In this document: positions 3,949 to 38,263 of the stretch, piece after piece
Position numbering within the stretch: the first letter of the stretch is position 1
How the letters are laid out: the number at the start of each line of letters is the position of its first letter
From: a virus
Taxonomy: Duplodnaviria; Caudoviricetes
Direction: 5' to 3' (one strand)
Length of the DNA stretch: 64,000 bases
Virus record (IMG/VR): IMGVR_UViG_3300012979_000004
Coordinates: 35,928 to 99,927 of that record
Position numbers and translations under genes: made by a program
Notes under the pieces: generated by a model
Database searches by the model: none
Seen by the model: only the letters and a program-made list of their open reading frames with translations
What the model was told of the DNA's origin: nothing

Positions 3949-5826
3949 ATGTGTATACGAAATTGTAGGATAGACGTCTATGATATAGAAGTTTTTCCAA
4001 ATGTATTTCACTGTTGTACAAAAAATACCGAAACTGGAGAAATAAGTAAATTTGAAATATCTGAAAGAAAAAATCAATTAGATGAATTGGTATCATATTT
4101 TACCAATAAAGAATCAAAGATAATCTGCGGATACAACAATCATCATTATGACGATGTTATAATAAATTATATAATAGATTATCATTCTAAACTAATTAGA
4201 TTGCCATACTGGAAGATATGTAAATCTTTATTCGGTTTATCACAAACTATTGTAACAGCAGAAGATGGAGACGTTGACAGATTTAAAAAATGGAAGTATG
4301 CGCATTACTTCTATTCTATAGATTTGTTAACTATGCAATTTAGTTCTAAATTACGAGTAGGTCTAAAAGAACTTCAATTAACCATGCATTATAAAAATGT
4401 GCAGGAATATGAAGGTGATTTTGAAAACAATCTTCCTACAAATGAAATAGACAAAATGATCGCATATAATATAAACGATGTAAATTCTACAACAGAGCTA
4501 TTAAACATTCTTAAAAAAGATATAGAATTACGTTTGTTTATATACGATGAATATCACATTGACGCATTGTCGATGGATAGTGTTAAGTTTGGAGAAAAAC
4601 TACTAGCAGAACGTTATTGTGAAAGCGCACGCATACCAATGCGATTGTTAAAGACAATGCGTTCACCAATGGACAATATCCCTTTAAAAGATGTTATATT
4701 TCCATTTATAGAATATAAAAATCCAAAATTAAAAGACGTTCTCGAAGATATGAAAAGGCAAATAGTATCTTCAAAAGAACGCAAAGGCTACGAGAAGAAG
4801 TTTGTTCTCTCGAACGTGGTGTATTCAATCGGAGTTGGTGGTATACATTCAATACACGATCCAGAAATATTCCATCCGGGACCTGACGAGTATATCGGAC
4901 ACAGTGATGTGGCGTCGATGTATCCGAGCTTACTGATAAAGTATGAACTTACTCCCAGACACTTAGGTAAAACATTTTTGAAAGTCTATTCTAAACTATA
5001 TGAAGAACGAATAGAAGCAAAACATAGCGGACAGAAACTTAAGAATCTTGCCTTAAAATTGACTCTTAACTCTGTTACGGGGAAAATGCAAGAAGAAACA
5101 AGTTGGATGTACGACCCATTTAACGTTTTCAAAATACGTATTAACGGACAGTTGATACTATTGATGTTGGTGGATCGTTTGCTGGAACTTAATTGTAAGA
5201 TTGTACAAGTAAATACAGATGGTGTTGTTTATATCGCTAAGAAAACCGCTTCTGAGGCCATTCAGGGGGCTATTTCAGAAGTAGAGCGTATAACACAACT
5301 TGTTTTTGAAAGCGACAACTATGAGGCGTTTTATCAATACGCAATCAACGATTATTTTGGAGTTGTTGAGGGTTATTCGCAATCTAATGACCCTAAATTG
5401 ATAGAAAAGAAAGGAATGTTTATCACTGAAACAAAAATAGGTAAAGGACTAGCACCGGTTATTATACCTAAAGCAGTGATTAATTATTTCTTAACAAAAC
5501 AGCCTGTATCTGAATATATCAGACAGCAGACCGATATAAAAGATTTCTTAATGGCACAAAGAGTCAATAAGAAATTCAAAGTCCGACACGGCAATCAATT
5601 TGTACAACGTATAAATCGATATTATGCTAGCACAAACGGTTATTCACTTTATAAAGTAGATTCAGACGGTAGTGAAACAAACATGTTAACTAAATCTGGA
5701 GTAACAATACTTAATAAAATGGACGACTTAAATATACAAGACAGGCATATAAATTATAACTATTATATAAGCGAAGCTAATAAGATAGTATATGATTTAG
5801 CTTGTCAACAATTAACTCTATTTTAA
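3949..5826 (+). CDS. polB: Family B DNA polymerase (crAss type)
   Basis: Exo I YDIEV, GYNNHHYD; polymerase motifs DVASMYPS, KLTLNSVTGK and NTDG. Confidence 0.93.
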   Translation: MCIRNCRIDVYDIEVFPNVFHCCTKNTETGEISKFEISERKNQLDELVSYFTNKESKIICGYNNHHYDDVIINYIIDYHSKLIRLPYWKICKSLFGLSQTIVTAEDGDVDRFKKWKYAHYFYSIDLLTMQFSSKLRVGLKELQLTMHYKNVQEYEGDFENNLPTNEIDKMIAYNINDVNSTTELLNILKKDIELRLFIYDEYHIDALSMDSVKFGEKLLAERYCESARIPMRLLKTMRSPMDNIPLKDVIFPFIEYKNPKLKDVLEDMKRQIVSSKERKGYEKKFVLSNVVYSIGVGGIHSIHDPEIFHPGPDEYIGHSDVASMYPSLLIKYELTPRHLGKTFLKVYSKLYEERIEAKHSGQKLKNLALKLTLNSVTGKMQEETSWMYDPFNVFKIRINGQLILLMLVDRLLELNCKIVQVNTDGVVYIAKKTASEAIQGAISEVERITQLVFESDNYEAFYQYAINDYFGVVEGYSQSNDPKLIEKKGMFITETKIGKGLAPVIIPKAVINYFLTKQPVSEYIRQQTDIKDFLMAQRVNKKFKVRHGNQFVQRINRYYASTNGYSLYKVDSDGSETNMLTKSGVTILNKMDDLNIQDRHINYNYYISEANKIVYDLACQQLTLF

Positions 5827-6421: not shown

Positions 6422-7325
6422 AATAAAATCTATGCGAGACGTGACTCAAGAAGCAATCTCGTATATAGCTGGAAGAAGAGAACATAATATAGTCTCTTTA
6501 AAGACCAGATGGAATAAGTTTAACAAACAGTGTATGGGAGGAATTGAACCAAATACTGTTTATACCATAGCAGGCATTTCTGGAAGCGGAAAGAGTTCTA
6601 TTGTAAACTCTATTCAAGTTGATTTAATTGATCTGAATCCTTCAGAAGAGATAATCATTTTATGTTTTTCATTAGAAATGGTTGGATTTAGGCAGGTCGG
6701 AAGAGTACTTTCTAACAGATTAAGAAAGACAACTTCTACCCTGTATAGTGCGGAAACGGACCTCGATGACAAGACATTTAAAGAAGTCATCTATGTATCC
6801 AATCAGCTAAAGGAATACCCAATCTACTTTGTAGACAATCCCGGTACTCCCAAGCAAACAGAAGAGATTATCAATAATTTCTATGAACAGTATGTAAAAA
6901 ATACAAACAAACATTTTGTAATCACATATGACCATACTCTTTTGACAAAACAAGTTGGATCTATTATAGAAACAATTAGTGAATTAGAACGAGTATTTAT
7001 ACAAGCCAAAAAATATCCTTTGACTTCAGTCATACAAATTGCACAAATGAACAGAAACATAGAGCAACCTGAACGGATTAACAACCCTTCGTCACACTAT
7101 CCTATGAGAAGTGACATAAGTTCATCAGACGCTGTGTTTCAAGGTAGCGATTACGTATTTGTAATACACAGACCAGAAACATTAGGTATTCAAGAATACG
7201 GACCAAGTCATTTGCCAACAGAAAACAAGGTTTATTTACACTTAATGAAAAACAGAGACGCAGGTAAACCTTGTATACTTGAATTCGAGAACGATCTTGC
7301 GTACAATAATATTATTGAAACATAA
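6402..7325 (+). CDS. dnaB: DnaB-like replicative helicase (ATPase domain only)
   Basis: Walker A AGISGSGKS, FSLEM, YDHTLL, IAQMNR, SDISSSDAVFQGSD, KNRD; start 6402 preferred over 6378. Confidence 0.9.
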   Translation: MEQNSFKIKSMRDVTQEAISYIAGRREHNIVSLKTRWNKFNKQCMGGIEPNTVYTIAGISGSGKSSIVNSIQVDLIDLNPSEEIIILCFSLEMVGFRQVGRVLSNRLRKTTSTLYSAETDLDDKTFKEVIYVSNQLKEYPIYFVDNPGTPKQTEEIINNFYEQYVKNTNKHFVITYDHTLLTKQVGSIIETISELERVFIQAKKYPLTSVIQIAQMNRNIEQPERINNPSSHYPMRSDISSSDAVFQGSDYVFVIHRPETLGIQEYGPSHLPTENKVYLHLMKNRDAGKPCILEFENDLAYNNIIET

Positions 7326-7361
7326 GCGTTAAGTATTAACAAAAAAATATTTTGGCTGACT

Positions 7362-7853
7362 ATGACAAAGACAACTTTTAAGATTACTAACAATAATTCT
7401 AACAACAATACAACATTTCCCATCACAAACTATTCTACGTTGCTTGATAACATTATTGCTACTAATATAGCAAAGACGAACAAGTATCTGTTTGATGATG
7501 GATCTTCGGATTTCTATACATTGTTGTTGAACGACTCTGCAAAGAAGCATACTTGTAATCTGTGTTGCCTCACAAACAATAACGATAAGTTTACCAAAGC
7601 TGCAAACTTTATTGCTAACTATGGCAAGAATAAGGGTACAAAGCTGCCAATCAGTTTTGGTAAGATTTATAAGCTGTTAGATGGTACACCCATTGCTTTT
7701 TATGAAGATGAAATTCAGATCGGCATGGATTTGTACGCATACAGCGATTTTAAGGACATTACGTTCTTGAATTCTTTGCCTAAGAAGACAAAGAATATCA
7801 TCATTAACATCTTCAATGCTAACGCAAAGAACATTGAGATTAACATCAACTAA
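7362..7853 (+). CDS. Asn-rich hypothetical protein
   Basis: 163-aa ORF ending TAA. Confidence 0.7.
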   Translation: MTKTTFKITNNNSNNNTTFPITNYSTLLDNIIATNIAKTNKYLFDDGSSDFYTLLLNDSAKKHTCNLCCLTNNNDKFTKAANFIANYGKNKGTKLPISFGKIYKLLDGTPIAFYEDEIQIGMDLYAYSDFKDITFLNSLPKKTKNIIINIFNANAKNIEININ

Positions 7854-19603: not shown

Positions 19604-22600
19604 TTAAAATGGAAGATCTTCAAATCCGCCATTACATTTATCCTCTTGTTTTTTACCCAAATTGGACAAGTAAACAATCTATTCCTTTCGTATCTCATCA
19701 TCCAATTCGCTTATTTGCTAGCGAATGGCATCGGCAGAAGCATTAAGTTTTTCCATCGCTTCTCTGCCTGTCGATATATCTTCTTCAGACCTATCATACT
19801 ATTTAGAAATAGCACTTTTCACAAGTTGTATAACATCATTATCTACGTTTACGTCGTGGTTGCTTGCAATAAGATTTGAAAATTTAGAAACGTTAATGAC
19901 GAACTTGTAGAATGGTACAGTGACTTTCCCAAATACGGGGCTATACTCTTCTCTAACATCTTCTTGTATGTTTATTAGATTTTCGATATCGTTTCCAAAC
20001 ATCTTTTTAAGATTTTCAACTCTCTCGTTCTTTTCGCTTTTTCCACGGTACCACTCAGACTCTACAGATTTAAAGCCGTTTAACTCTAAATAGTTCAAAA
20101 TATTATACGCAATTGTGAAATAATTACTTTTTACGGAATTGTCCAATCTTGCAAAATTGTATTTATTGTCAAATAGATGTTCTGTTGGAAATATGAAAGG
20201 TGAAGTAACAACATTTTCACTGATATTAATTCTCATACTAACGAGACCAAATATACTTTTACCGTTGTCTATAAATCCGTTTATACCTCTAAGCTTTCCT
20301 GCGGGAGTATTTATAACAAACGGATCGTGTTCTATCGGAGATATAAACTACTTTTGTACTACCTGTTTTTTATTTACGACCTCTCTTAGTCGATTTGTTA
20401 AAATCCAACGTTGTTCGTGTAATGCTCCAATGCGGCCTTCGCCAAACGGAGATACTGGTTCTGAAACATCGTCAAAGATTTTCTGATCGTCATAAACAGA
20501 CTTGGACGACGTAATCACCGGTCTTCCGTATTCATCGTTCTTGATTTCAAATATTGTAGACTATATCGCTTCAAGACTATATACTCTGAATGTAATTCTT
20601 GCGCTGGATTGGTCTTGTGTTAATTTTTCCACATTGCCTACAATAGACATAAACATAGGACCATCTCTAAAGACTACTATTTGTCCGTCATTTAATTTAC
20701 CTTCTTTGCCAGGCTCGGCCTCAAAAGAATAGTCTACTATATCTCTAGGAATATTTACAGTTACGTCTGCTGTACTATTAGCAGAATCTAAATACTCATC
20801 AAAGCGTTCAAGTTGTGGCAATATCTGTTCGTATACAACCTTCTTGTTTACAAAAGACACTGTGTTGCTAGATATAAACAACTTGTAGTTTTCCTTAGCC
20901 CTGCGATTTTCTTCGGCATATTTGTCCATCAATTCCTTACTTGGATTTGTAAGAAGAGTGACCATTGCGTCTTTTATAGTCTTTTCTACAGATTTATATT
21001 CTTTCTATACTCCAAACAGTTTTAGTATTGCAGAAATAAGTTTGTCGAATATATTCTTACCTTTGTGTCTTCTATCAAAATCACGAATGTGCGCCAAGAA
21101 TTCAGGTTTTGATATTTCTGCAATCATTTCAATAGGGCTAGAATACCCGTAAAGATCGTCAGACTGTATCCAAAATTCAAACGCTTTTTCAACATTCATT
21201 CCACGACTCGATATACCTTTTTTATCGAAATGTTGTTCTATGAAATCTTGTTTAAGAAGGTCGTAGCAATATTCTATTTCTGTTATAGCTTGTTGAATTT
21301 CTTTAGGTAGATTAGACCTGTTTGCAGTTTTTAGATAATAACAAGTAACTGCATGAACGGATTCGTGTAATAATGTATTTGGCTACAATGCGTCCGGGTT
21401 ATACAATATCTTATTCTCACTAGCAACAAATCTACCACTAACCCCTTCTCCAAGATCTGCGGATTCAAACGTGACACCAGTACCATCTAACGCATTAAAT
21501 ACAAGTTCTGTTAATTTTGCATTAGGCGCGCCTTCTCCGAATTGCTATATTAACTGTTGCTTAACACCTTGTATAGAACTTTCACCGCGTTTTCTGTCGT
21601 CAAGTTCTATCGGGGTTTCGATATAAGAAGAGCCATATAACTCTCCGTCATAAAATTGAGAATCTCTAATAGGAGCATCTATATTATAAAACTCTTTTAT
21701 ATATTTTACAACAAACGGTGTGTGTAAATCTTTATAATTTTTATAAATATTTGCGTATTTGTATAAATCAGATGGTTCTTTTGTTCTAGAACCAAGCATT
21801 AAATTGGCGTGTTCGGCAGAATTCTATAATTCTTTCAACTGTTTATGAAGTGATAATAACTGTTGTGATGCATTATCCGGTAATTGAACATCTGCGGCGC
21901 TAAACATGTTTTCCATAATTTTTCGTAGCACGACATATGTTTTGGATCTACGAGCTATTCTATTATAGTCGCGTCTGCTTTTATCCAGATCTCTCACAAC
22001 ATTTAACACACTAGGGTCTACTTCTTTTGACCTTCCGGCATGCATTCTTGCGAGAACGGATGGCGGCAATGATCTTTCATCGGTTACACTATTCTACTTC
22101 TTCCACTCTTCATATTCAGAATCCGTCATATTCTAGTATACGTTTTCATACTCAGTAGCTCCTTTCTTGATAAGTCTCGGTTTGCGTTCTTCTTGTACAC
22201 TATTTTGTTCTGCTCTAAGTTCTTCGCGTACTTCCATGAGAATTCTTGGGAACTCCCTAGAATATTCTTTTCTGCCACGAGTATGTGTCAACTTAACATT
22301 ACCGGTAGAAAGAAGTCTATTTCGTGCAGTTTCATTTTGTTCAAACGAAGCCTTGATAAGATCTTTCAATATCTCATATTTATAAGTATTCCAATCTGTT
22401 ATATCTAACTTAGGAACTTCTCCTCCTAATTGTTTAGCTTTTGCAGAAGTAGCGGCGTTCTATATGCTTTTAAACCATTGATCTCTTTCTTCTGCCATCA
22501 TGTCTGTATAGAACACCTTTGCAGCCTGGAAAGCTCTTTCTACAGATTTAAATTCATATTCTTCGTTGCTACCAGGAGCTCCTATAACAGAACCTTTAAT

Positions 22601-25600
22601 CTTGAACGGACGTTCCGCAAAATTACTTAAATCTGGATTAGATCTGTTAGGATCGTTGTCACTACTACCATACCATATTTCCATTGGTCTTACCCCGTTT
22701 GCTCCGCCAGAATGAAGAGTATGACCGTCATATGGCATGTCATATGTACCAGGAGTATTTACTTTAGGTTCCTGTATCGTCTAATCAAACATTCCTGTAC
22801 TAACCCACGCTCTACTAAAATGCACATTTGTTGGAATTGGGCCAGCTTCTTTGAACATGGCGATCATTTCGGCACCAACATAACCATTGAGTGTCAATTC
22901 TGTCAACCCGTTTGTATATGCGACTTTAAATACTTTTTCAGGAGTTTGTCTAGCAGCTTCATATAAACTCTTTATTGATTTTACTATGTCGTCTGGAGAA
23001 ATAGTACGTTTTACAGGATTGCTCTTAACCTGGTCGTATGTAATATTAGAAGGATCGAACTCAAATCCACTTTGTTCTGCACGATAATGATCTAATACTT
23101 TTTGTCTTTGACGTTCACCTGGTCTATACCATTCAGTGCCTTTAGAAGCTTCTATATCTTTTGTAGGTAACGCGTAGGCGTTTCCGGTCATACCTTCTCC
23201 GACTCCTATTTTTGCTCCAAACATATCTTTAGCATATCGTGCAGCTCCAGCTCCATGGATACCCTAAGGATTACTACCAAACACCATTATCGTACTTCCA
23301 TCTGGAACAATATTACCGTCATAGTAGTTTGGTCGCTGAGTAAACGTTTGGTCGGATTCATATGAAGCTCCGGCAGATCTTTGTCTGTTTACACCCTCTA
23401 CCATTGCTGCAAGGGTTTTGTCGACAATGTTGCTTTGCACAAGCACTGACAAATTTGTTTTGTGTTCATAAACATAATCTGCGATTGTAAGCAGCGCGTC
23501 TCCTGGAGTTGTTGCAGTTACACCTAATATGTCAAGTAGTGTTTTTAAACTACGATTCACCAACTCTTCTGAATTACTACGCTCATTTGCATAATACTAT
23601 AGAACACGCTCGCGCTTGTCATACACGCCACCTTTGTGATCTACTAACTAGTATATTGGGTAATTACTACCTGTTTTACTGCTGCCTGAGCTAACAAGCT
23701 TGTACATATTATATGCGTCCCTTCCTTTTATGGCACTCTGACTGTCGTACTTAGGAATCTTTATGTAAGTTTTTGGATTAGTTATTGTAGAATTTCCACT
23801 ATTGTCAATACCTGCAATTAATAATGGAGTTCCGTTTACGTCCTTACCTGATGTAAACGATTGGAACACCGGCTTGTTCTTGTTATACATATTGTACTTT
23901 GGAACAATGCTATCGTTATACCAATTGTTTAAGACGATGTCTTCTATATCTTGGTCAGATATAACCTAAAAACCATTCACACACTGTGTGTGCTAGTTTC
24001 TCATATGTTCCGAATACGAATTATCGTCATTATCAATCTTTCCAAGTTTCCAAGAGTTTGGTACGTATTTGAACAGATTTTTACCTCCGTAATCTCCTGA
24101 AGTTATGAACGCGTATACAATCAACTCTCTTGCAAACTGTTGCAACTCTGGGTATCTTGAATCCGACAATAAATCCTCCCAAGCCTAAGTAAGATCGTCA
24201 GCGTTAAATGTATCGTCTATTACAAAGTCTAATGACTAAATAAACTTAACTCCTCCGTCATATTCATATTTATTGCCGCTAACCAACGCCTAAAGCAGGT
24301 AATTAATCGGACCACCGGTTCTACTATCGATCAGCTACCTGTATTTCTAATCGTTTATAAGGTTTGTCTTAATCTACAACAGTTTGTCATATATTGTAGA
24401 GCTGCCTGAAATAAGACTTTCAGGATTTATTTTATACCTTTCACAGTATCCATTTTGACCGAAGAAGTATTTAGATTTAATCTTTGCCATAATGGCGTTT
24501 TGCACAAGATTGATAACCTTAGGATCTTTTCCTGTATTTCCAACTGTTGTCAACACTCTGTCTACATCCTATACAAATTGATCGGTAGCTTCTATCATTT
24601 GATTACCAAGGACTTGTCTAAACAGGTTTGTTGCCACCTATGTTTGATGTTGTATGTAACTTTTTTGATACATATTATCTAGACTCTGTGTGTCAAATAG
24701 AGCTCTGTATTCACCTTGTGCATCTGGTTCAAACAATTCAGCAACACCCTACAAATACTTCTGCTATTCTACCAAGTTTTTACCTTGCTTCTTAGTATCA
24801 ATTTTTGTATGTTGTACCAACGAAGATAGTGCCTTAGCATAAGGTTTAAATTGGGTATTAGCAAAATATACGATCATCTGGATATCAAATGCAGACATTT
24901 TGTGTTTTTCGCCGTTTATTGTCAACTCATAGTCTTCAACATCGTCTTCTACACTAGTATACTTAGAACCAAATTCTCCAATGTGCTTTTTTGCAACTTT
25001 TCGCATCACATCGCAGTCTTTTGCAAAAAGAGCCTGAATTGCATCATCTATGTTGAAATCGCACGTTCCTTGGTAGTACTTTATCGCAACGTCGTACGAT
25101 TTGAACGCTTGACCAAAATGTGCGTCTATCATATTTTTTACAACAGCCTATTCAGCCTCTTCAGAAATCTTAGTCTTACTCTTAGACTAATCGTTCATGT
25201 ATATACCATTTGCATTTTGATACGATATTGCCAATTGTCGCATTATAGGCTGAGTTGTAAAATAGAACGTGTCTTTTCCAAGACCAGCATGCGTTAACAA
25301 AGATACAAGATTATACGTATACTAATTAACATTCAGCTCCGGTATCCACGGATCTTTTGCTGCATCGACGTGAGCATTAATCAACCCTGAGAACCAACTC
25401 ATGATAGATTTACCATATCTATCTTGATATCCACCTAAGTTTGTAAGACCAAGCCTTGTCATAATAGATTCACTGTCGTCGAGCTTAACGTTATACAACT
25501 GCATCAATATATGCGTGTTGTTATTAAGTGCAAACGGGGCTATTCCGAATTTACCAGAAATAAATACATTCTTTGTGTTAGATTGTTCCCTAAGTATATA

Positions 25601-28600
25601 TCCACTATACGGCATTAGCGTTTCTTTCTGAATACCTTCTCTGAGATCGTCTCGTATTTCAGTAAGAAATGATGTATCGTTGTCAATGGAACCATTTAAA
25701 TCTTGGAACGAGTGATCAGAATCTTTAAGTACAGAAAGATATGCATTTATCAACCTGTTTGCATACCATTCATGAGTGCGCTCTTCAAAATCAACAGTTC
25801 CCTGTGGATTATAATATAATCTAGACAGGAACATCTTATCGATATCGTAGTCGGATCCAGTAATAGAGGTGATTGCTTTAGGCATTATGATAGTGTCTCT
25901 AATCACCGGAATCACATCTACACAACGCATAGCGTGGATAGAAGATACAGCCTGTGTTGGGATACGGTATCCTATTATATTTGCACTTGCGCCGGTACCA
26001 GGTATCGGTTTACCATCTTCATCATATTTAGGTCCGCCTATTATCTTATGATCAATGAGCCATTGACGTTGTTCTTCAAAAGACAAGCTGCTTACAGAAA
26101 CATATTCATCTGTTTCATATTCTTCTTCAACTTGAACGTCGTGTGTGCGCGTATAGTCTGTATGCGGTACGCCGTATTTTTCGTACGTGTCGTATTCTTT
26201 CTTGACTACTTTTCTTGTCTTCTTGATTTTTTTTCCAGTCTTTACCTTGGCTTTCTTAAGAATATCTTCAAAATAATCAATCGAAAGCACAACGTCCATA
26301 GAACCATCTTCATTCTTAACCTGTAACGGCTTTCCGTCATTTAACGACGGTGGTATATTTTCATCGCTGAGCACAGATACACCCTCCATACCCCAAGGAG
26401 ATCTTTGATAAAACGCCTTACCTGGTGTGTTCGTGTCTATCACACGCTTGTCTATCATAGACTTAATGATACTCTATATCCAATTCATTCCAGATAAAGC
26501 AGCCAAAGGAACTTTAAGTTGCCCGTTTTCAACGCTCACTGCGTCTATCATTTCTGCACTAGCCCCCCTGCCAACAAGCTCTTTTGTAAGAACGCTGCTG
26601 AACTTATTAACGTCAAACTAGCCATCGGTAAAAAACAATTCTTTAGTAATCTACATGCCGCTATCACTCATAGCGTTGAGACATTCCATGATCCTGTTTC
26701 TAACCTATGTTGCGCTCAGATTCTCTCCACCAACAACATATGTTCTACCAGGAACCAGTGTAGACAAAGCAACCTTTTTTGTTTGCGTACCGATAGACAT
26801 TTCTTCTTTATCTTTCGGATCGGTGTTAAATTGCTTGCGAAGATACTTGATTTTCTGTGTATATGTATTAAACTTAAGACTATCAATGTTGTTCCAATCT
26901 ACAGAAACAGAACCCTGTCCTCCTACTTTCACAGCAGAACGCATCATGATCATATCTATATGATTGTTTTGCATCTTTTGATAAAAATCTGCCAACGGTC
27001 CTGTTGCTATAGATTTGAATATTGGGAATAATGCGGTTTTGTTATAATAAGGAATATGTGTAATAGTTGTGTTTCCTTCAGCGTCTGTATGTTTGCGTTC
27101 TCTAAATCCAAATGCTGTGTATTTTTGTGCACCTATTACTGAAGTAAGCACAAGTTGATATGCTTTTGCCAACTCTCGAATATCTTTAGTAGTGTATACT
27201 TTGCCATCTACTTCTTTGCCGGTAAGTATGTCGAATGCTCGTTTCACATCACCGTTGAAAGATCCAGCCATTCTGAGAAGGTTTTCACACATCTATTCAG
27301 ATATATATGACGCACCGTCTGTTACGTTTATTTTCTTAAACGCGTTTACTTTTGAATTGACTGAGTTAGTAATGACAGTTTTTACAACATCATCAAAAGT
27401 ATTCCAAATGTCTTCGATTTCCATCTCATCCACCTCTTTTGACAACTGTTCGGCACGATCAACATCGTCGAAAGAAATACCTTCTTCAGCAATCCTGTTT
27501 TTCAGATAGGTATCACGAATAGTCCCTTCGTGTATAAGTTTATATAGTTCGTCGATATTATCCTCAGAAGCTTTTTCATCGTTGACTTCGGCGCAAACAT
27601 AATCTTCTTCTATCCCAGGTAAAATAACGTTGTTAAAACCAGTAGACACAAGACCTCCGAGTCGTTTAGATTGGTCGTCGGTTCTGTTGTAAAGATGACC
27701 ATTCTTGTCGTACTTAAAGCCGTAGAACGATGGGTGTCCGCTAAATACACGTTCGTACTCGTTCATAGATATGATTCCCTTTGCAACAACATCGCCGACA
27801 AGCATCATCAATGCGGTTCTACGTAGTTTATCTTGATCTCCGTTTGGATACTTTGCTGCAAGTACGCCATAAATAGAATCCAACTTTTTGTAATCCAGTC
27901 CGACGTTTTGGTATCTAAGCATGTTAGAATCTTGTTGGTTTTGTTTCCCCACATCCTGAATGATGCCTAGTTCGCATATATACTACAATTCTTTTTCGAC
28001 CTGTCTTAAAAGAATCTCATTTATCATGTTTCTCTATTCTTCAGGACTCTTGTCGAAGAAATATTCATGCGCGATTCTCTAGCACATTTGCTCATCCTGG
28101 TACACACCGTTTTCATCAAACAGCTTATTAAACTCTATGAACCTACCGTTATCCCACACGCCAAGCAGAGTACTAAACCTACCTCCTTGTTTTACAGTAT
28201 GTTTTATTTTTTCACCGTTTGGAAGAACTTCTTCTACTACTGCAGATTCGTCATAATTCTAAACGCGTTCTGAATCAGGAATAGACTCTGATAAGAATCT
28301 TGTTATCGATGCGTCTTCTGTCTTAGCATAAGCAATAAGTTGATCTAATACCTCATCATTAACAATTCTTCCCTTTTTCGAAGGCACTGTGTCTGGTAGC
28401 TTGTTAAAATCCAATCCTGGTAAGAAAAGGCCTTTTATATAACCCCAAGTCTTTTTGTCAGATTGTGTTGGGAATAACATTCTTCCTGATGACAATGCTG
28501 AGAATTTAGAAACATAGTCTTCTCTTGCACTCATATGTGCATAATCAACGTCTTCTACACCAGCATCACTACTACTAAAACCTATAAGAGTTGCTATTTC

Positions 28601-31600
28601 CAATTTACCTTTGTTTTTATCTACATGTTGAACAAGCAAACTTCCGTATGCAACACTTTCTCCAATCATTTGTTGTTCTACATTATAGATATATGGATTC
28701 GACTTCATCGAAGATAACACGGCTGGATCATTTTGAATTTCAAACAACCTATCGTTCAGGAAGTTGTTTTCGGACATAACGTAAAACGTTTTATTATTTG
28801 TTGTCAGGATAGACAGCTGATCAAACGAATGTCTATATTCGTACTTATAGTTGGCCAAGTTAGAAATAAAACCAATCTTTGTAAATACTTCAGATATACC
28901 CACATAAGCTCGCTGATTTGGCAACAGGACAGTTCCATTTGTGATATTAAGTTTTCCGTTGTAGTTAAGAGATGAAACAAAATCAAGGAATCCTTTAAAG
29001 CTTCCAAATCGCTAGTCTGTCAAGAATTCATATAAGCCTTTTGCCCCAACATCTTGATATCGCTGCAACAATGTGTAATCTAACGCATCTTTTTCGAAGT
29101 TTATTCCGAACCAACTAAGCGTACGAACTACGTAGTTTTTACACATTTCGACATGCTGTGCGTTGTTTAGATCGATCTGTACACCATTTAATTCAAATGG
29201 CTTCGGGCTTTGATTGTTCGGGCTAAGTGCCTACAACATACCATTTGCTCCAATAAACGAATCGACAATTGCTGTAAAAACATATGGGGACATCCCGTTT
29301 TTCATAACATAATCGCCTCTTTCGTTCTATTTGATAAAATAGCCAACACCGGCTGCAAGATTTTGCTACCAATCTTTAGTAAATTTTGTTGCAGCGTGCT
29401 GAGAACCAGACGACGTGATATATACAGTATATCCGTATTTGCTCTTTTTCATTTTAGCGATCTCAAACACGTTTTTATTTTGACGAACGGTTTGTGTAAT
29501 TTGAACTAATAGCTGTTCCGCATCGTAATCTACTGGAGTCCCGTTTGTCGGATCTACGGCATCCCATACTTTTTCAAAACGTCTAGAAATCACATTATAC
29601 ATATAGTTCTTTTCTCCAAGACGCTTGAGTTCTTTTCTTAGATCACTAACGCTAGATATTTCGTGTAAATCGTTCAGCATTCTAGCATAAACCTGTGCAG
29701 CAGGCATCAATTCTGGCAGACCGCAGTCGTTTAACCTAGGCACCTTTTTTCCGCCAGCGTTAAATGTATAGTCCGGTATTCCAGCGAAAAAGAATTTTAC
29801 CTTCTCACTAGCTCTATTAAACGGATTAAATTCATATGACGCCTTAATATGTCCATCCACCGCTTCAGCACCAGAGTTAGCAGGATCATCGTCATCAATT
29901 GTACTATCGGCATCGTCTGGTGTAGTTGGATCTGGAACAGCCGTGTCTAGTACAGAATGATTTGCTTCTTCATACTTAACTTTAAAATCGGTAGAGAACT
30001 ATGCAATATGACTAGCAATATCTGGCTAAACAACATCCCAGTTGTCCATCAATTCTTTTAACGCAGTCCTTGTTTCATACGGAATACGATACACAGGTGT
30101 TCCGTTCTTCATGCCAATCGGTTCCATCCACTGCTTCCAGATTGCAGATTTCATAGCCAACTCTTTGTCTACACTTAGTTCAGATATATTTGCTCCAGAC
30201 CATTCTATTCTTTGTGTAGATGGGTTCATAAACAAATATGTCAAACTTTTAACAAGAGTTCTATAGTGTCGTTCGTTAACAATATTTGGCAACTTCCTCT
30301 CACGTTTTGTAAAATTGAGCCCGTTTGCAGCAAATGCTTTGAATCGTTCTTGAGCCTCTTTTGTAGGCTATACATCCCTGAATTTACCTAAAGATGTTAC
30401 TGTATATAAGTAGAACAGTCTTAAGCTTCCAACGGATTTTAACATCTCTACCCAATCTTTAATTTGAGTATACATCTGTTTGAGATTGAACGTAAACTTA
30501 AACGTTGGCTTATTCATCATGAAGTACATAAAATTATCTGCCAACGCCTCGGCAACCTACTTGTCAGTAAGAGTCTTTCTACCTTTTTTGGCATTACGGT
30601 AAGCAGAATAAACCTTATCACGTTGTTTTGACGTAAGAAGTAATTCTACAACTCTATGGAACGCTTCGTGATATTCTACTCCAGATTCCGCTTTTCTAGA
30701 AAGGATTATAGAATCGCTATAACAACTACCTACAACAGAAGCTCCGCTACGCAACATTGCTATAACATCGTCTACGAATTCAATCTTTACTCCATTTGAC
30801 CCAAATATTTTCTCCAGACGGGCTCTTGCTTTCTGCTCACTGATTTTTTCACCATTTGACTACGTAGTAATACGCTTATCCATGCGTTCAACATCAAAGG
30901 CAAACGCATCATCGATTACGTCATCTATACCGTATGTTATGCCGTTGTTTTGTGCTTCTGTTACGGATACTTCCACTGGATTGTTTGTGACTTGTGCAGA
31001 AGTTGGTTCATCCACAGGAATGTCGTCAACGATTTTAACCTAAGCAGTATCATCAAAATTAAGCAGTGTGTTATCTACACCATCAAAACGTGTTTCTATA
31101 AATCCACGTTTCATGTACCATCCGAGTCCAGTTAAACCAAGCACGTCGTTTGGATTGGAAGGATCTTTAAAATCGTCTAAGTCAAATACAATACTACTGT
31201 TTCCAAACTAAATCTGCTTTTTTTGTCTCAACAACTATTGTCCTGACGGATTATTTAAAAACCCAAGAAGTTTACTAAACGGATTGTTTCTGTCTCGGCT
31301 ACCCAATCTATGTTGCATTACAACATCGCTTAGATTTCTACTAACGTTGTCCATAAGGAAATCCCTCAGCGCCTACTTTCCGCTTGGTGTATCTAAGTAA
31401 TACGTTCGTTCTGTCAAATCGTCTCCAGCAACTTTTCCAATAAGTTTTACTGCCTTTTTATGCAACTTATCGTATTCCACATGTAACATTTGTTTTCCGG
31501 TTTGCGGTCCAAATGGAATCAACAAACTTAAAACTTGATCGTTTGTAAGGCCGTATTGTATGTTGTTTTGTACAAATACCTAAGAGAGATCTGTAGAACC

Positions 31601-34600
31601 ATCCGCTGTGTGCTATCCGTCGAGAATTTCTATAATAAGATTTGCGTCACCTTGCGTCATTTTTGACGGACTCATTACAACTGGTATTTTTGTTTGCGAG
31701 TTTGGCTCTTCGTAATGAAGATCTAGAGCCATTCCGTACATGCCTGACAACCCCTCTGTGTTTTCACGGAACGGTAATAACGGTATGTTTTGCCCACCGT
31801 TTATACCAGGAACAACGATTGCGTACATGCCACCCTGTTCTACAATTCTACCAAACGGTTGACTTGGATTGAGCTGTACATCGTATAAATACACTTCGCC
31901 TTCCCCAGGTTTTGTGCCAACCAATGGTTTTCTTCCAGGAGTGGTTTCTGTCATTAAGCTAAGAGATGTACCTGCGTGCATTTTACCACCTGTTCTTCTT
32001 ACTACAGTAGGTACTACAACCTGTCCAGCTTTAGCTTTACGTAGAGCGTTCATTACTCTACCGTAGAATTTTTCACCGATTGGATTTCTTGCATTAGAAA
32101 TAGTAACAGGCTGATATGTAACACCTTTGTACGTAATCTGAACCGTTAGTTTTTGCTGACCGTTCACCATTACAGTTCCAAAAACCATTTTAGATTTCGT
32201 TATGAAATCCTTTTCTCCAGTAACATACTTAAGTTTTTTAGAAGGATCATCTATTGCTACAGCGTCTTCTATGCCTATAGAGTTCTCAAAAGTGTGAGTA
32301 TAAGTGGTTGTATGTTGTGTCCAATCGTCAACCTACACTTCACCCTTAGCCTTATTCTTCGCTTGAGCAGCACTGTCTGTCAGTTGCTTATGTGCTGCGT
32401 CCGTAGCTTGCTATTCTGCTTCTTCGGCCAATTGCTGTGCTTCTGCTGCATTTTTTTCAGACTGCTTATAAGCATTATCGTGCACAACTGCATCTGTTGT
32501 TGATTCTGCAGCATCTGCTATGTCTCTCTGATCATCGGAAACTCTTGCAGCAGCGTCCTTAACGTCATCAGTAACATTCTAGTTGTTATCATCTATAACA
32601 ACGTTCATGTTATCTATTGCTGACTTTGCTCGATCTGTAGCATCTTTTGTTTTTTGCAGATCAGCTTGTTTCCTGGTTGTGTACTGATCTAATACATCGT
32701 TTGATCGCTCAAGCTCTAGCAACACAGGTCTCTTGACATCCTACCCTGCTTCGTCTTTTACGTACCCATTTTGCTCATCATTGATCACTACATCAAAGTT
32801 AGACGCCCCATATTCATCACCGTCATCCTATAACTATACGTTCTCATCTGACCTTTTATAATTCAACACCCACGGTAGTATTAAAAGAGACCCGACATTA
32901 CCGTCTAAGTTGTCATTAAGCATAATGCTGTACATAGTAAGCTGGTTTGAATATTGTCGCCTATATGTACGCTTTGCAGTACGAGGCTCACTCGTATCCC
33001 AATCCAATGTACGATAAGCTTGTGAGAATCGGTCGTACACAATGTTGTGATTTCTGCTATTGATTTTTGGTACAAACGAGTCGGTTGATGTCTTAAAGTC
33101 TATTATGTGGTATTTTCCGTCAGAATCAACCACAATCATATCGGTTTCACCAGCTACTCGAACGACATCACCATTTGCGTATTGTAGTTCTGAATATAAA
33201 AATACAGGATCTGTGATTAAAATCCAACCACGACTGTCAAACAATTTTTTTATCTCCGAAAGCTGTCTTACAATTTCATTATAAGTTCTTTCAGACATGT
33301 TGTCTTTATATTTAGAATAAGATGCTAATTTTCCAGCAAAGAATGTTCTACAGATTTCATCTATTAGGTTTCCATACTTAACAGATATGTGTACTGTTTC
33401 GTTACTACAGATGTCAGCTATAGAATCCTCCACATCGCCAATTTGATCAGGATTATCTTTCACATATTGAATATACGTATCTACCACAACCGGCTCTTCG
33501 TCTGGGAACTGTTTATTATGTTCTTCAGCGGCTTTTCTTGCAGCCTTTTCCCACTCGTTCATGTCAGATCTGAGTGATAATAATTGCTGCTTTATACGGT
33601 GCTCGTTTTTCCTTTTTGAAGATGTGTTGACAAACATTTCATCAAGAACGCTGTGCACCCTTCGGTACATTACAAGTTTACCATCACGCTCAATAAAATA
33701 ATCATGACCTGTACGCAAATCTATTCTGACTCTTTCCTTGTCTTCTGCTATTTTATCCAACAAAGCCTTTACTGCAGCTTGTTGTGCATTACTGTGTAAC
33801 ACTTCGTCAGCAGAAGCTACTGATGCAGCTGTAGATGAAGATGGTGCTAGCGGGGGAGTTGTTTCAACACTGACTGTAGGATTACCAACAGTTTTATTTT
33901 TAAGCGGTACTTTAGTCCTAAATGTTTCACTAACCCCGTTTTGTTCCGTTTTGTATTCAATCTCTGCAGTTTTTCCGTCAGAAGAAATCACTTTAGCTAT
34001 ACCGCCGTTTATATCTTGATCTATCCAATCCGCAACCATAGAATAATAGGCGCTAGCTCTATCGATGTCATCACTGGTGACAAAAGCAGGTTGTTCTACC
34101 ACATCTTTATTTTGTTCTGGCAGATTGGGTTTGTCGATTTCTTGTTCAGCAACCTCTTTCACTTCTTGCGGAACAGTCTACGGTGTTTTAGAATCGTCAA
34201 TAGCATTGTCGACTGTACTTTTTATTGTTCTTGGTTTTCTTGTAGGAATAATCTGACCATCTGAATCAAATTCCAAAGAATCAAACCTCTTTGCTAATTT
34301 TTTACCAGCGACGTTTTTACGTTCGTCGTTAGGAATAAACACCAACGCTAGTTCTTTTTCGTTTATATACCCGTTGGTATAAGCATCGTACAACTTCTTA
34401 AATCTACCGCCATACTGCGTAGACATTGCAAAGCCAGCTTGTTCTAACAACTGTAAGAAATCAGTATATGTTTTTGCCTAACTTGCGTATTTTATTGCGT
34501 TGATTGCATTATTATAAGTTTTCTAAGAATTACTCCTATTTGGTACAATAGGGCCTTCTCCGTTTTCTACAACACCCCTTCTCCCGGACGGAATGTATTC

Positions 34601-37600
34601 TGTAGGGTTACGCAAAGACTCTTCTGCGCTACGGTTTATTAATTCCGCAACTTCGTCTGCTACTTCGTCTGTAGTTTTATCTGACACCGGTTGATCTATG
34701 TCAGGTTTATTCAACTGTTTTGCAGCAGCCTCTATATACTTTATAGAAATTGCATTTTGACGTTCATTATTTGCGTCTCGAATAATGTCCATCATTTCAG
34801 CAGTAGACTCAGCTTTGAATTGAGTTTCTTTTGTTATTCCTGTTTTTGGATCAACCTCTTTGACTGAATACAAAACACCGCCGTCTCTGGCAGTTCCCAA
34901 TACGGTAAGAGTACCTCCAGCGGATACACCGTCGAGTGTCGGACCCAATTGTACCGTAGACCCTGTTCTTACATCAGGGCTTGCGTTCATTCGTTTGGCA
35001 TCTCTTTCCGCGTAATCAGCAAGTACTCTTCGCTGCTGTTCTCTTACGAAATCACCAACATCATACTCGTCGATTACATATTTACCTTTTTCGTCAGTAG
35101 CTAAATTTTCACGATCTAATACAAAACGTTGTCCGTCGATAGTAGACGCCATAAGATTCTCATGCTCATCGTTGACGTCTCCGTTTGTTAAAAATACAAC
35201 ACTTCCGTTTTTAAGTTGTGCAGCCTTTACTTTATTCTTACCGTCACGGTAACGTATACGCATTACGTCTGATTCGGCCTGTTGTAATAATATATTAAGA
35301 TCGTCATTCTATCTCTGATTGGCACCTTCTCTTGTTGCCAACATGTTGTCGTACGCAACCAGAGCTCTTTTTATATTTATGTCTTCTGTAGACAAGTATT
35401 CATTTAAAAACCCGTCTATTCCACCATACGCATCTGCCAAATCGTCAATGTCTGTACCAAATACAGAATCTAAATTTGCCTTCATTGCGGATATAGCTCT
35501 GTCCAAATCGTTTCTTTCGTTTTGAGTGGTAATCATGTACCCAGTCTAATACGAATCTCTAACAGCCTTTGCGTGATTAGAACTATCGCGATTCTGCTGT
35601 TCTATCTGCTGTGCATAGGACGCACCTCTATATGACATCAATTCAGTATAGTAATCAAACAGGTGTTGTTTGTCTTCAACAGACGTCATTGTTCCAGCCA
35701 TACGACTTACAATAGAAGCAACGTTTTCACTAGAAGCGTTTACTATAGCATCTTCAATAGCTTGCCAATTGTCTCCGAAGTGTTTCGATGCTTTTTTTTG
35801 TGCATTTTTGTAACGATATCTTGCACTTAATACGTTCACGCCACCTGCAGAACCAAGTACGAATTGCGACAACGCCACACCACCTACAATATCCCAGAAG
35901 TTGTCTTCGCTAGTAATGTCTTCCCAAAACGATTTGCCAGAATCACTCACTCCAAACGCGTATTCTAACGCCATTCCATAATACTCTTCAAGCGACTCTC
36001 CTACAAATCCGTGATATTTCGCAGCATGTAAGAAATCGCTGACTTTTCCTTTTGCAAGCGGGTTGTACTTTTGGAATATGTCAATCGCATCATTAATAGC
36101 TTTGGCGCCACGTAGCATGTTCTTAGCAACAGCGTTCACACCAACAACGTCCGCGAGAGATTGATCTTTTTTAGACTTATATATCGCTTTTCTTACAGTA
36201 CGATTGAGTGGTTTGAACATGTTTGTAAAAATATTGTATTCACCCAAAGCCTCTGAAAAGTTTTCAATCCAAGCTCTTGTCTCAGCCTGCCATACCGCTT
36301 CTTGCCAATCCAAACCTTTTTTAAACCCTGTACCTGTAATCTTACCGCTTTGGTCGATGTTGTAATCTATCAAACCTGTATGTAATTCCAATACGTCGGA
36401 GGCGGTTTTTGCAGATTGTACGGTGTTAGATAACGCTAACGCTTGCAACGCATCGCCACTAAGTCTAGTTGCAAGTCCAGGAATTTGTTTTATATTTCTA
36501 GCAAGGATTGCTTTAACGCCACTCTTTCCATACTGCTCAATTGCTTCACGAACAGCTGCTTTCTGCATAGATTTTCCAAGTTCTCCAGACAAGAATTTTA
36601 CAGCACTCTTTACGCCTGCTTTAGCGGATGATTTTGCAACACTGGCCAAACCATGGCTACCTATCGCCATATCCAACATAAACGGAAGCGATTCTGCAAA
36701 CATTTCTCCAGCACTTACACCCCACGCGTCCTGATATTCATCGTATTTATCGTTTAACACTGCGTCAAGCGCAGCTGCGTTTAAGAAGTCCTGTTGCTCG
36801 TTATTTAAAGTAAATCCTTTGTCTTTAACGTCTTTTATTTCTGCAGCAACTATAGCTTTTTTTATATCAGACACTCCAAAATCCCATAATGTAGGATCGG
36901 TGACCTTTTTGAAAAACGATACACCAACGTTAGACGCTTTTTCTAATAAATTTGTATCACCCTTATAGAAGAGATCGTTTATTTCTTGGTATTTCAACGC
37001 CTTGTCCACAGTGTGCAAGCTTTCCACCAAGGTGTTGTATCGCTCACGATCTTCTCCCAATGCCATCTAATATACGCCAGCTCTCAAAGCACTAAAAGGC
37101 AAACTCGCACCTTTAAGAGCTCGACCGACAATGCTTTCATCGTTTTCAAATTGCGCAACGGCTTTAGGTATGTTGTGAGCATCTTCTATGATACGCATTT
37201 CGTTTTCAATCTGACTTTTTAACTACACCGCCTGTTGATCTGCATTTGGGTTCGTGGAAGACCCAAGACGATTTGCGTTCTTAGTGATATCCTTTATCCT
37301 GTTTACGCGGGCTTGTATTTCGCTTGGGGTCAACTACCCGTTGTCCAAGTCACCGCCTTTTGAAAAAATATCTTTTGCAACGCTACGCAGAGTTTCTGGA
37401 AGTTCGTTAATGCTGTTTGGTAAACCGTTCACCGATATCCATTTTTCAATTAGATCGATCTTAGTTTGTCTTGCGTTATTTCTTCGCTCTAGTTCATTGA
37501 TTCTTTTAGCAAGCGGTTTAAGCTGTGTTTTATCAGAGTTTGGGTTTTTATCTATATCCAAATACTGCTGTTTTAACCGCTTTGTTAGTGCTATATCGTC

Positions 37601-38263
37601 CTTATAACGTTTTGTAGCCAAAGCGTGAAAGCTGTCTGCAGCAATGCCACCACGCGCTACATACTTGTTAATGAGATCTACATTTAATTCATATTCCTCT
37701 TGTAGTTGTTGCAACTAATTGTCTATCTTATCAATCTGTGCCGACTCGTTGGCATTATTGCTTTTTTGTAATATAGTTCCACCGTCTACAGGAGATACGC
37801 CTACAACCTGTAACTATGCACTATCTTGAATTTGTTTTTTCTTATTCTCTAATACGTCACGTCGTTTTTTGTAATCGGTTTCTATCTTTTTGAGCTCTGC
37901 CGTAATTGTATCACGCTGTATTTTGCTACTTGTTTTTTCTGTAGTGTTACCAATCACAATATCTCTCTCGTCAGACTTAGCTGTTTGTCTACGTGCTTGT
38001 GGTTCGGCAGAAGATTCAGTTTTAATACTTGACGATGTAACGCCTTCGATCGAACTAGCGTCAATTTTATTCTACTCAGCACGTCTTCTATCTTCTTCCT
38101 ATTCGGCTTTACGTTTCGCCTCCAAGATTTCAAGCTAGGCTTCCATTGCATCATATTCTGCTATTCGCCTACGTCTTTCGTTATTGACTGCTTCCATTTC
38201 GCGCCGCATTGCGCTACTGTATCTTTGCAAACCGTCGCCGTTAAAATTATATCGTGTCACCAT
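19604..38263 (-). CDS. Giant virion RNA polymerase polyprotein, 6219 aa (TAG read as Gln)
   Basis: 26 ORF-track fragments in one frame, from ATG 38263 to TAA-TAA at 19604. Two-barrel RNAP motifs GYRIPTQ, GSDYDIDK (25838-25852) and HVDAAKDP. Also HExxH twice, PD-(D/E)XK, macro-like and NADAR domains. Confidence 0.92.

Follow-up and report, generated by a model that had tools for sequence, protein, structure and literature searches.

The stretch of DNA analyzed here (the window) comprises 64,000 nucleotides (nt), corresponding to bases 35928-99927 of the IMG/VR record IMGVR_UViG_3300012979_000004, a complete virus genome of 99,927 bp with terminal repeats. Its minus strand, on which all of the features described below lie, carries a giant open reading frame (ORF; 38263..19604) that encodes 6219 amino acids (aa) when TAG is read as glutamine. 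The product appears to be a crAss-type virion RNA polymerase (RNAP) polyvalent protein, and C-terminal to its catalytic core are two domains of predicted ADP-ribose-removing types: an A1S_2505-family, DarG/TARG1-like macrodomain (domain 1, aa 4979-5158, 22799..23326) and a NADAR domain of the phage (His) type (domain 2, aa 5193-5350, 22214..22687).

The giant ORF contains 74 in-frame TAG codons and no TAA or TGA. Read with the standard code instead, this part of the minus strand (19.6-38.3 kb) splits into dozens of short ORFs. Glutamine is the commonest residue opposite the 74 TAGs in aligned homologues (5.4-fold enrichment over background). Genome-wide, every TAG-containing long frame is on the minus strand, alongside genes of structural size, and the long plus-strand frames of the replication-gene region have zero TAG. 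This strand pattern matches that of crAss-like phages, which recode TAG to glutamine mainly in late genes (PMC10136315), and, together with the enrichment, it supports the reading of TAG as glutamine in the giant ORF at the level of sequence comparison.

Three of the TAGs fall inside the two-domain module: Q5000 in the active-site loop of domain 1 (23264..23266), Q5161 in the linker (22781..22783), and Q5268 within NADAR (22460..22462). Because of them, the standard code yields only pieces of 99, 147, and 92 aa (ORFs 23264..23563, 22781..23224, and 22460..22738, respectively), and exactly the 92-aa piece is present in the public protein set (P0359). A sequence-only reading of the window had stated that both domains appear only after TAG read-through and that standard annotation splits them at TAGs. 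Both statements hold: the domains are present in a frame that is open only if TAG encodes an amino acid, and the database fragment is one of the predicted pieces. The motifs that it quoted were all found (IMVFGSNP(Q)GIHGAG at aa 4992, window 23290; PIPTNVHF at aa 5142; LSNFAERPF at aa 5212; ILMEVREEL at aa 5341), and its domain ranges agree with the profile and model limits within about 10-40 nt. The lesson for annotation is that standard procedures hide such domains in recoded crAss genomes.

By sequence homology, the carrier of both domains is the crAss virion RNAP. Residues 2359-4891 align to gp79 of cr130_1, the 5801-aa product of a giant RNAP gene of the Suoliviridae (E-values [E] of 8e-156 and 1e-97), and likewise to the 2385-aa "putative RNA polymerase" of the cultured phage Kolpuevirus frurule, a homologue of crAss001 gp50. 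The catalytic metal-binding motif is DYDID at aa 4138-4142 (25838..25852), as placed by alignment to the DFDID-bearing stretch of cr130_1 gp79 (position 4229); DFDID is at 1344 in the gp50-like protein of K. frurule, and crAss001 gp50 carries DFDVD at 1483. The window protein thus has the DxDxD motif described for crAss RNAP (PMC10136315) within a region homologous to crAss RNAP catalytic subunits. The two domains, which begin at aa 4979, are C-terminal to this core, as had been read from the sequence. RNAP genes that encode proteins of up to about 6000 aa and carry DxDxD are a hallmark of the crAss order (PMC10136315). For crAss001, mass spectrometry identified gp47, gp49, and gp50 in the virions, and all three have been proposed to leave the capsid ahead of the DNA (PMC10172136). 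The name "virion RNAP polyprotein," which the giant ORF had been given in advance, seems justified by this homology, and the location of the ORF in a TAG-recoded, probably late, minus-strand gene block would fit a packaged protein. With an RNAP core, a macro-like domain, NADAR, a weak PD-(D/E)XK / SduA_C match, and HExxH motifs in one chain, the ORF has the composition of a polyvalent protein.

Domain 1 is a member of the A1S_2505 family. It matches the NCBIfam profile A1S_2505_Nterm (NF049995) with 81.3 bits (cut-off 45; E 5.5e-23) and phrog_2072 with E 2.6e-26, and a genome-wide search with the family gave E 4.9e-62. An AlphaFold2 model, for which 75 standalone homologues served as the alignment, has a predicted local distance difference test score (pLDDT) of 94.6 and a predicted template modeling score (pTM) of 0.90, and displays the three-layer alpha/beta/alpha macro fold. 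In an exhaustive/wide VIA-align search with this model, 28 of the 31 top rows were macrodomains (Z 8.9-5.9), with superpositions at a root-mean-square deviation of about 3 Å over about 120 residues; these Z values are near the tool's stated background ceiling, and the weight lies in the uniformity of the list and in no single score. The matches include alphavirus nsP3 (4gua, Z 8.9; 3gpg, Z 8.3), a Bacteroides thetaiotaomicron protein (2afc, Z 8.5), the DarG macrodomain of Mycobacterium tuberculosis (5m3i, Z 8.4), TARG1 (2lgr, Z 8.0), and Thermosipho DarTG (Z 7.0). A SLOG/LOG-like Rossmann domain, which the pattern FGSN..G.HG.G had suggested, was considered and set aside, as the structural matches are to macrodomains and leucine-aminopeptidase N-domains, not SLOG.

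The link to characterized erasers was examined at the level of families. The comparison profile for the AdfM/DarG2-like group was built from the phiKZ AdfM family and comprises 67 sequences, all PF01661 members; phiKZ AdfM itself matches the DarG structure 5m3i (E 9e-25). When aligned using hhalign, the A1S_2505 and AdfM/DarG2 profiles matched over 129 columns, spanning the whole domain, with a probability of 81.8% (E 1.1e-5), compared with 0.1-0.2% for the controls (reversed columns, and the unrelated NADAR family). Alignment of domain 1 to AdfM as single sequences gave only 1.6%; the macro link is visible only with two family profiles and by fold. Four motif pairs are in register: FGSN with VN, G-x-H-G-A-G with G-V-M-G-A-G, LPTK with FPTK, and LNGYxG with LGCGxGG.

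Two residues of domain 1 can be placed by this alignment. N4998, of FGSN, aligns to the near-invariant Asn of the AdfM/DarG VN motif. Mutating a conserved catalytic-site Asn lowers AdfM activity (PMC13309987), and we infer that the VN motif supplies this Asn. K5035 (23159..23161), the Lys of PTK, aligns to the Lys of FPTK and is the predicted catalytic lysine of domain 1; the assignment of the FPTK Lys as DarG K80 derives from PMC11543638 and residue counting in the 5m31 alignment. The T and K of FPTK are invariant in the DarG2/AdfM family. In the A1S_2505 family, the P and T of PTK are invariant and the K is present in 62 of 76 members, with Thr in its place in the other 14. In the window copy, N4998, K5035, and the loops G-x-H-G-A-G and NGYxG are all retained. 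As a separate observation, 14 of the 76 proteins, which may or may not be those with Thr, have Cys for Asn in the LNGY loop.

On profile, model, and motif evidence, we classify domain 1 as a divergent macrodomain of the DarG/TARG1 (catalytic-lysine) type. It is not a DarG proper. There is no DarT gene in the phage genome, and domain 1 is followed by a linker and NADAR rather than by the DarG C-domain, and for these reasons we refer to it as an orphan, AdfM-like predicted eraser. Directly after PTKD, it contains a lineage-specific helical insertion of about 52 aa (22994..23152) that is missing from the standalone homologues of ~142 aa and from the closest metagenomic relative fetched (L003, see below); AlphaFold2 models it as helices at 71-84 and 97-102 with pLDDT 88-97. 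The A1S_2505 family is large, mainly viral by its Atlas clusters, and without a Pfam model. Searching the ESM Atlas with a standalone homologue of domain 1 returned only unnamed viral clusters.

The identification of domain 2 is more direct. It matches Pfam NADAR (PF08719) with 54 bits (cut-off 35.1; E 3.1e-14), with the same result from the whole-genome search, and phrog_1017 with E 5e-17. For both domains, profile scores of this size lie well outside what chance would produce. Sequence matches to the Protein Data Bank (PDB) are to the Phytophthora NADAR (8bau, E 1.4e-4) and to Escherichia coli YbiA (2b3w). In an AlphaFold2 model of the tandem, pLDDT is about 85-98 over most of the NADAR part, and Foldseek places this part with YbiA (2b3w, E 2.5e-5) and PnNADAR with bound ADP-ribose (ADPr; 8bau, E 4.4e-5), with probability 1.00 in both cases. 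The match to the Pfam family Phage_30_3 is weak, and the loop that precedes the last helix in YbiA is missing.

The catalytic residues of NADAR can be located by alignment to T4 gp30.3 (AdfN). The pair E5242 and K5249 (VERAFQAAK, 22517..22540) aligns to E36 and K43, the residues mutated in AdfN (PMC11825919), which are equivalent to E43/K50 of PnNADAR and E88/K95 of the E. coli C7 NADAR (PMC11543638). H5327 (LTHT, 22283..22285) aligns to the T4 gp30.3 His at the third catalytic position, where the acid is "replaced ... with histidine in phage NADARs" (Schuller et al., PMC11543638). All three residues are invariant in an alignment of 60 NADAR segments (T4 gp30.3 and 58 related segments with domain 2). 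This comparison puts domain 2 together with T4 AdfN among the NADARs of the phage type.

Between the two domains is a flexible linker of ~40 aa (aa 5156-5192, 22688..22798), the sequence of which is conserved in L003. In the tandem model, residues 185-211 have pLDDT <50, and no fixed arrangement of the domains is predicted (pTM 0.55, a low value to which the shallow alignment over NADAR and the linker may have contributed). The model suggests that the domains are beads on a string. Each occurs once in the genome.

We searched 1.84 billion representative proteins with a two-domain query and obtained 3083 matches at E <1e-3; most of the ~3000 matched representative clusters carry the A1S_2505 domain. 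Among 244 proteins fetched, domain 1 is present in 205, NADAR in 62, and both in 23. In these 23 proteins, either domain can come first, and about 10 architectures are represented, with partners that include cpYpsA-SLOG, DUF488-N3, DUF1848, RecD/PIF1 helicase, and primase. This recurrence argues, from sequence, for a functional linkage of the pair. Two architectures deserve mention in their own right. One protein (P0136, 889 aa) comprises NADAR, domain 1, a second NADAR, and a cpYpsA SLOG, and in another (P0141, 867 aa), a DnaG-type primase, domain 1 and NADAR are inserted so that they separate the zinc ribbon from Toprim; the eraser pair has therefore apparently also been grafted onto replication enzymes.

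The position of the module after the RNAP core appears to be a slot. Across 47 proteins that share the core, the slot contains domain 1 only, NADAR only, or both, and the content varies even among nearest relatives (these proteins were selected for domain 1 or domain 2, and thus show variability, not prevalence). Relatives swap DprA-like, helicase, SLOG, and NADAR domains. In GenBank Crassvirales, NADAR follows the core in cr130_1, cr131_1, and cr272_1 and is N-terminal in cr126_1 (annotated as DUF1768), domain 1 is found in cr112_1, cr116_1, and K. frurule, and none of these has both domains. In the gp50-like protein of K. frurule, which was cultured on Bacteroides cellulosilyticus, domain 1 is a clean insertion of ~160 aa between blocks that are conserved in gp50; crAss001 gp50 has ~22 aa there. 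Because relatives carry domain 1, NADAR, both, or neither at the slot, we regard the module, on sequence comparison, as an exchangeable cassette that occupies a set position in the polymerase. In three close relatives (P0124, P0125, P0127), ~230 extra residues without a Pfam match separate domain 1 from NADAR, and this stretch may be a third cassette domain of the slot.

The closest relative fetched, L003, is a 95.8-kb scaffold from ENA that is TAG-recoded and has the same tandem; a search of IMG/VR viral contigs with the tandem found no relative. In L003, NADAR is followed by about 75 residues, which finish in a similar ...KC.G tail, whereas the window protein continues for ~860 more. In L003, the RNAP frame stops and resumes ~760 nt further on (6842-7603), exactly at the catalytic motif (the ORF starts MFDIDK), with two small ORFs between. 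Many metagenomic relatives (P0122-P0135, P0143, and others) begin at the same residue (target range from 2, opposite window aa 4139). These observations suggest an intervening element or split gene at DxDxD in the relatives, as the Crassvirales review mentions for some groups. Unlike in L003, the motif in the window is uninterrupted.

Two other parts of the giant protein can be described briefly. At aa 1669-1751 (window 33011-33259) there are weak Pfam matches to SduA_C (Shedu nuclease C-terminal, E 2.7e-5, just under the cut-off) and PD-(D/E)XK_1, which point to a possible nuclease-like domain in the N-terminal half. The extension of ~860 aa after NADAR (aa 5351-6219, window 19607-22213) has zero matches in Pfam, PHROG, and NCBIfam, and contains HESVHAV (21347-21367).

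For the host side, the likely host order of gut crAss phages was taken to be that containing Bacteroides hominis. Of 401 Bacteroidales species genomes sampled, 37 (about 9%) carry a member of the DarT family. In 12 of 14 DarT loci examined, DarT is followed by a Macro-domain protein of ~345 aa (DarTG2 type). Of the other two, one (L145, genome G100) has DarT beside an ARH-type ADP-ribosylglycohydrolase (PF03747) and a UvrD-like helicase fragment, and in the second (L129, genome G003, Segatella copri), a 487-aa protein beside a DUF6939 gene has DarT as its N-terminal part.

Much of the biochemistry on which an interpretation must rest is published. NADAR reverses DarT1 guanine-ADPr (PMC11543638), and AdfN removes DarT1 ADP-ribose from DNA and is an anti-DarTG1 factor (Johannesman et al. 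2025, PMC11825919). The DarG macrodomain reverses DarT2 thymidine-ADPr (PMC11825919, PMC13309987), and AdfM (phiKZ gp104), a DarG2-like macro protein, removes DarT2 ADP-ribose and is an anti-DarTG2 factor, as published in 2026 (PMC13309987). The sequence-only reading had cited as established the actions of NADAR on DarT1 and DarG on DarT2 products, the anti-phage role of DarTG, and the presence of crAss RNAP in virions, and all four are upheld by the literature (PMC11543638, PMC11825919, PMC13309987, PMC10172136). The novelty that it implied was overstated, given that tandem NADAR and Macro viral proteins and virion delivery of such domains were both reported in 2022 (Iyer, Burroughs, Anantharaman, Aravind; PMC9503650). 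Our literature search found no paper that joins crAss with NADAR or DUF1768; the terms crAss-like, RNA polymerase, ADP-ribose, and macro co-occur only in a general phage-resistance review, each once or twice. One GenBank record labels a crAss RNAP-type protein "DUF1768 domain-containing." Known, then, are the eraser families and the delivery strategy, and undescribed is the crAss virion RNAP as the carrier.

The best-supported reading, to which we give a probability of roughly 0.5, is that the module is an injected, possibly tethered pair of DNA ADP-ribose erasers on the crAss virion RNAP. Profiles, models, hhalign results, and conserved residues show what the domains are, and sequence comparison also shows their place in the RNAP protein, the gain and loss of the cassette among relatives, and DarTG2 in the likely host order; their activity, the packaging of this region, its timing, and its substrate are what we infer. 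The corresponding proposal in the sequence-only reading stands in its parts on domain identities, on position within the RNAP, and on splitting by TAG, but not as to the novelty of the tandem or of virion delivery. The macrodomain-like pattern that it recognized in domain 1 is borne out by the NCBIfam match, the macro fold, the hhalign result, and the aligned catalytic Lys, and the NADAR/YbiA pattern in domain 2 by the Pfam and Foldseek matches and the retained Glu and Lys.

The proposed sequence of events is as follows. Two independent predicted ADP-ribose-removing hydrolase domains, flexibly linked and directly C-terminal to the RNAP catalytic core, would be loaded into the capsid as part of the RNAP protein (by homology to crAss001 gp50) and would enter the cell ahead of or with the DNA. 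Once inside, both could strip ADP-ribose that host ADP-ribosyltransferases (ARTs) have placed on phage nucleic acid, with thymidine adducts of the DarT2 type the most likely target of the macro domain, and adducts of the guanine or cytidine type that of NADAR. Transcription and replication early in infection might thereby proceed before any phage gene is expressed. A more elaborate version, which we put forward tentatively and think rather doubtful as a whole, is a self-cleaning entry machine, in which erasers of the thymidine type and the guanine/cytidine type, covalently tethered to the injected RNAP, would clean the single-stranded DNA that it exposes before expression begins, and the slot would be tuned in each lineage to local Bacteroidales ADP-ribosylation defenses. 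Self-immunity against an ART of the phage itself was also considered and was not retained, as there is no ART-PolyVal or DarT in the genome (other ART families were not searched).

Several results weigh against the eraser-pair reading and must be set beside it. For domain 1, Pfam Macro (PF01661) has no match in the window copy, in 76 family members, or in the whole genome, a PDB sequence search with the domain 1 family profile found no macrodomain, and although Foldseek ranks alphavirus, TARG1, and other macrodomains first in the PDB, it does so with weak E of 0.03-0.1. As neither Pfam Macro nor solved macrodomains are matched by sequence, we file domain 1 as macro-like (a divergent macro family), not as a member of PF01661. 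The chemistry of the A1S_2505 family is not uniform, because 14 of the 76 members have Thr for the catalytic Lys, and this subgroup may be a variant with different chemistry. The ~52-aa insertion beside the catalytic Lys of the window copy could alter specificity. On the host side, none of the 14 Bacteroidales DarT loci pairs DarT with NADAR (DarTG1), although this is a small sample and not proof of absence. The likely hosts thus offer an obvious target for the macro half, but the examined loci offer none for the NADAR half of an "anti-DarTG" reading. The HExxH motifs of the giant ORF leave room for proteolytic release. Finally, ARAGORN found no suppressor tRNA (CTA anticodon) in the whole genome, its only calls being tRNA-Cys(aca), tRNA-Leu(taa), tRNA-Met, and a tmRNA-like call at genome 29408-29717; most recoded genomes likewise lack a suppressor tRNA (PMC10136315).

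The main rivals to an injected pair of DNA erasers are the degradation of soluble signals and late action without injection. In the former, the domains would degrade soluble ADPr-derived molecules (cyclic ADPR isomers, ADPr-1''-phosphate, O-acyl-ADPr), and so blunt TIR, Thoeris, sirtuin, or other NADase immunity. Iyer et al. (2022) favor such substrates, judging by the contexts in which Macro, NADAR, and SLOG domains occur in phages; tandem NADAR and Macro proteins were noted there, and distinct bond specificities proposed (PMC9503650). The co-occurrence of the pair with cpYpsA-type SLOG and DUF488-N3 in other giant proteins is in keeping with this, as is the absence of DarT1-NADAR from the sampled loci. 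We nevertheless consider it unlikely, given that the closest characterized relatives act on DNA adducts (AdfN, with identical E, K, and His, and DarG2/AdfM, with the catalytic Lys), that all three phage NADARs tested neutralized DarT1 (PMC11825919), and that DarTG2 is common in Bacteroidales.

Less probable again, in our judgment, is that the pair are genuine erasers that are not delivered with the DNA, because they are made with the recoded, probably late genes and act late in the infected cell, or are cleaved off before packaging; they might then clean DNA before it is packaged, or reverse ADP-ribosylation of RNA or protein. There is precedent in phiKZ AdfM, which is expressed late and without which DarT2 blocks DNA packaging (PMC13309987), and NADARs also reverse cytidine- and RNA-linked ADP-ribose (PMC12945103, PMC11833690). 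A disordered linker and two HExxH motifs, including HESVHAV, could permit processing of the polyprotein, but Pfam gave no support for a protease domain, domain 1 of K. frurule lies inside the gp50-like protein and would be packaged unless excised at both ends, and crAss RNAP proteins are virion cargo (PMC10172136). The idea that one or both domains are catalytically dead, serving as ADP-ribose or nucleotide binders (sensors or polymerase docking modules) or as structural inserts, we think highly improbable. It could appeal to macrodomains that are readers only (PMC9503650), to the A1S_2505 members that lack the Lys, and to the loss of the YbiA loop before the last helix. However, the window copy of domain 1 retains its Asn, its Lys, and both Gly loops, the Glu, Lys, and His of NADAR are kept here and in all 60 segments, and T4 AdfN, which is equally short in its architecture, is an active enzyme (PMC11825919).

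No phages are more abundant in the human gut than Crassvirales, yet their means of overcoming Bacteroidales immunity are little understood. If the eraser-pair reading is correct, the activities would be present from the first second of infection, within a pre-packaged polymerase, and crAss biology would be linked to DarTG-type defense, which occurs in about 9% of the sampled Bacteroidales species genomes. The unnamed A1S_2505 family gains a working assignment as a predicted DarG-like macro hydrolase. K. frurule, with domain 1 in its gp50-like protein, offers a cultured experimental handle.

Domain 2 resembles AdfN (T4 gp30.3) in its NADAR fold, in the Glu and Lys spaced seven residues apart, in the His at the third position, and in its short C-terminal architecture (PMC11825919). 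AdfN is a standalone protein of ~150 aa whose gene lies in the T4 gene 30 (DNA ligase) region, whereas domain 2 is embedded in a virion RNAP beside a macrodomain. Domain 1 is similar to AdfM (phiKZ gp104) and the DarG2 macrodomain in fold (VIA Z 8.4 to the M. tuberculosis DarG) and in the aligned Asn, Gly loops, and PTK Lys (PMC13309987; PDB 5m3i, 5m31, 7omu). It differs from them in belonging to a separate family (A1S_2505), in having no DarT-binding domain, in the ~52-aa insertion, and in being fused rather than standalone. AdfM is imported into the phage nucleus, a structure that crAss phages lack. A further anti-DarT protein, AdfB of phage ICP1, was considered as a relative and dismissed, as it works by binding DarT and so is not relevant.

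The giant ORF is like the RNAPs of crAss001 (gp47, gp49, and gp50) and phi14:2 (gp66) in its DxDxD two-barrel core, giant size, and gp50 homology (PMC10172136, PMC10136315). Unlike the giant ORF, crAss001 gp50 has neither domain, and crAss001 divides over several proteins the functions that the giant ORF unites in one ORF with extra domains. As regards delivery, the nearest parallels are the proteins of Iyer et al. (PMC9503650), in which two ADPr-processing domains occur in one very large polypeptide that is presumed to be packaged and injected, with shuffled SLOG and helicase partners. The polyvalent proteins of Iyer et al. (2017, as cited in PMC9503650) are likewise very large, multidomain, and presumed to be injected. 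The 2022 survey does not mention crAss phages (0 occurrences; PMC9503650), and what distinguishes the present case is that the carrier is predicted to be the virion RNA polymerase itself.

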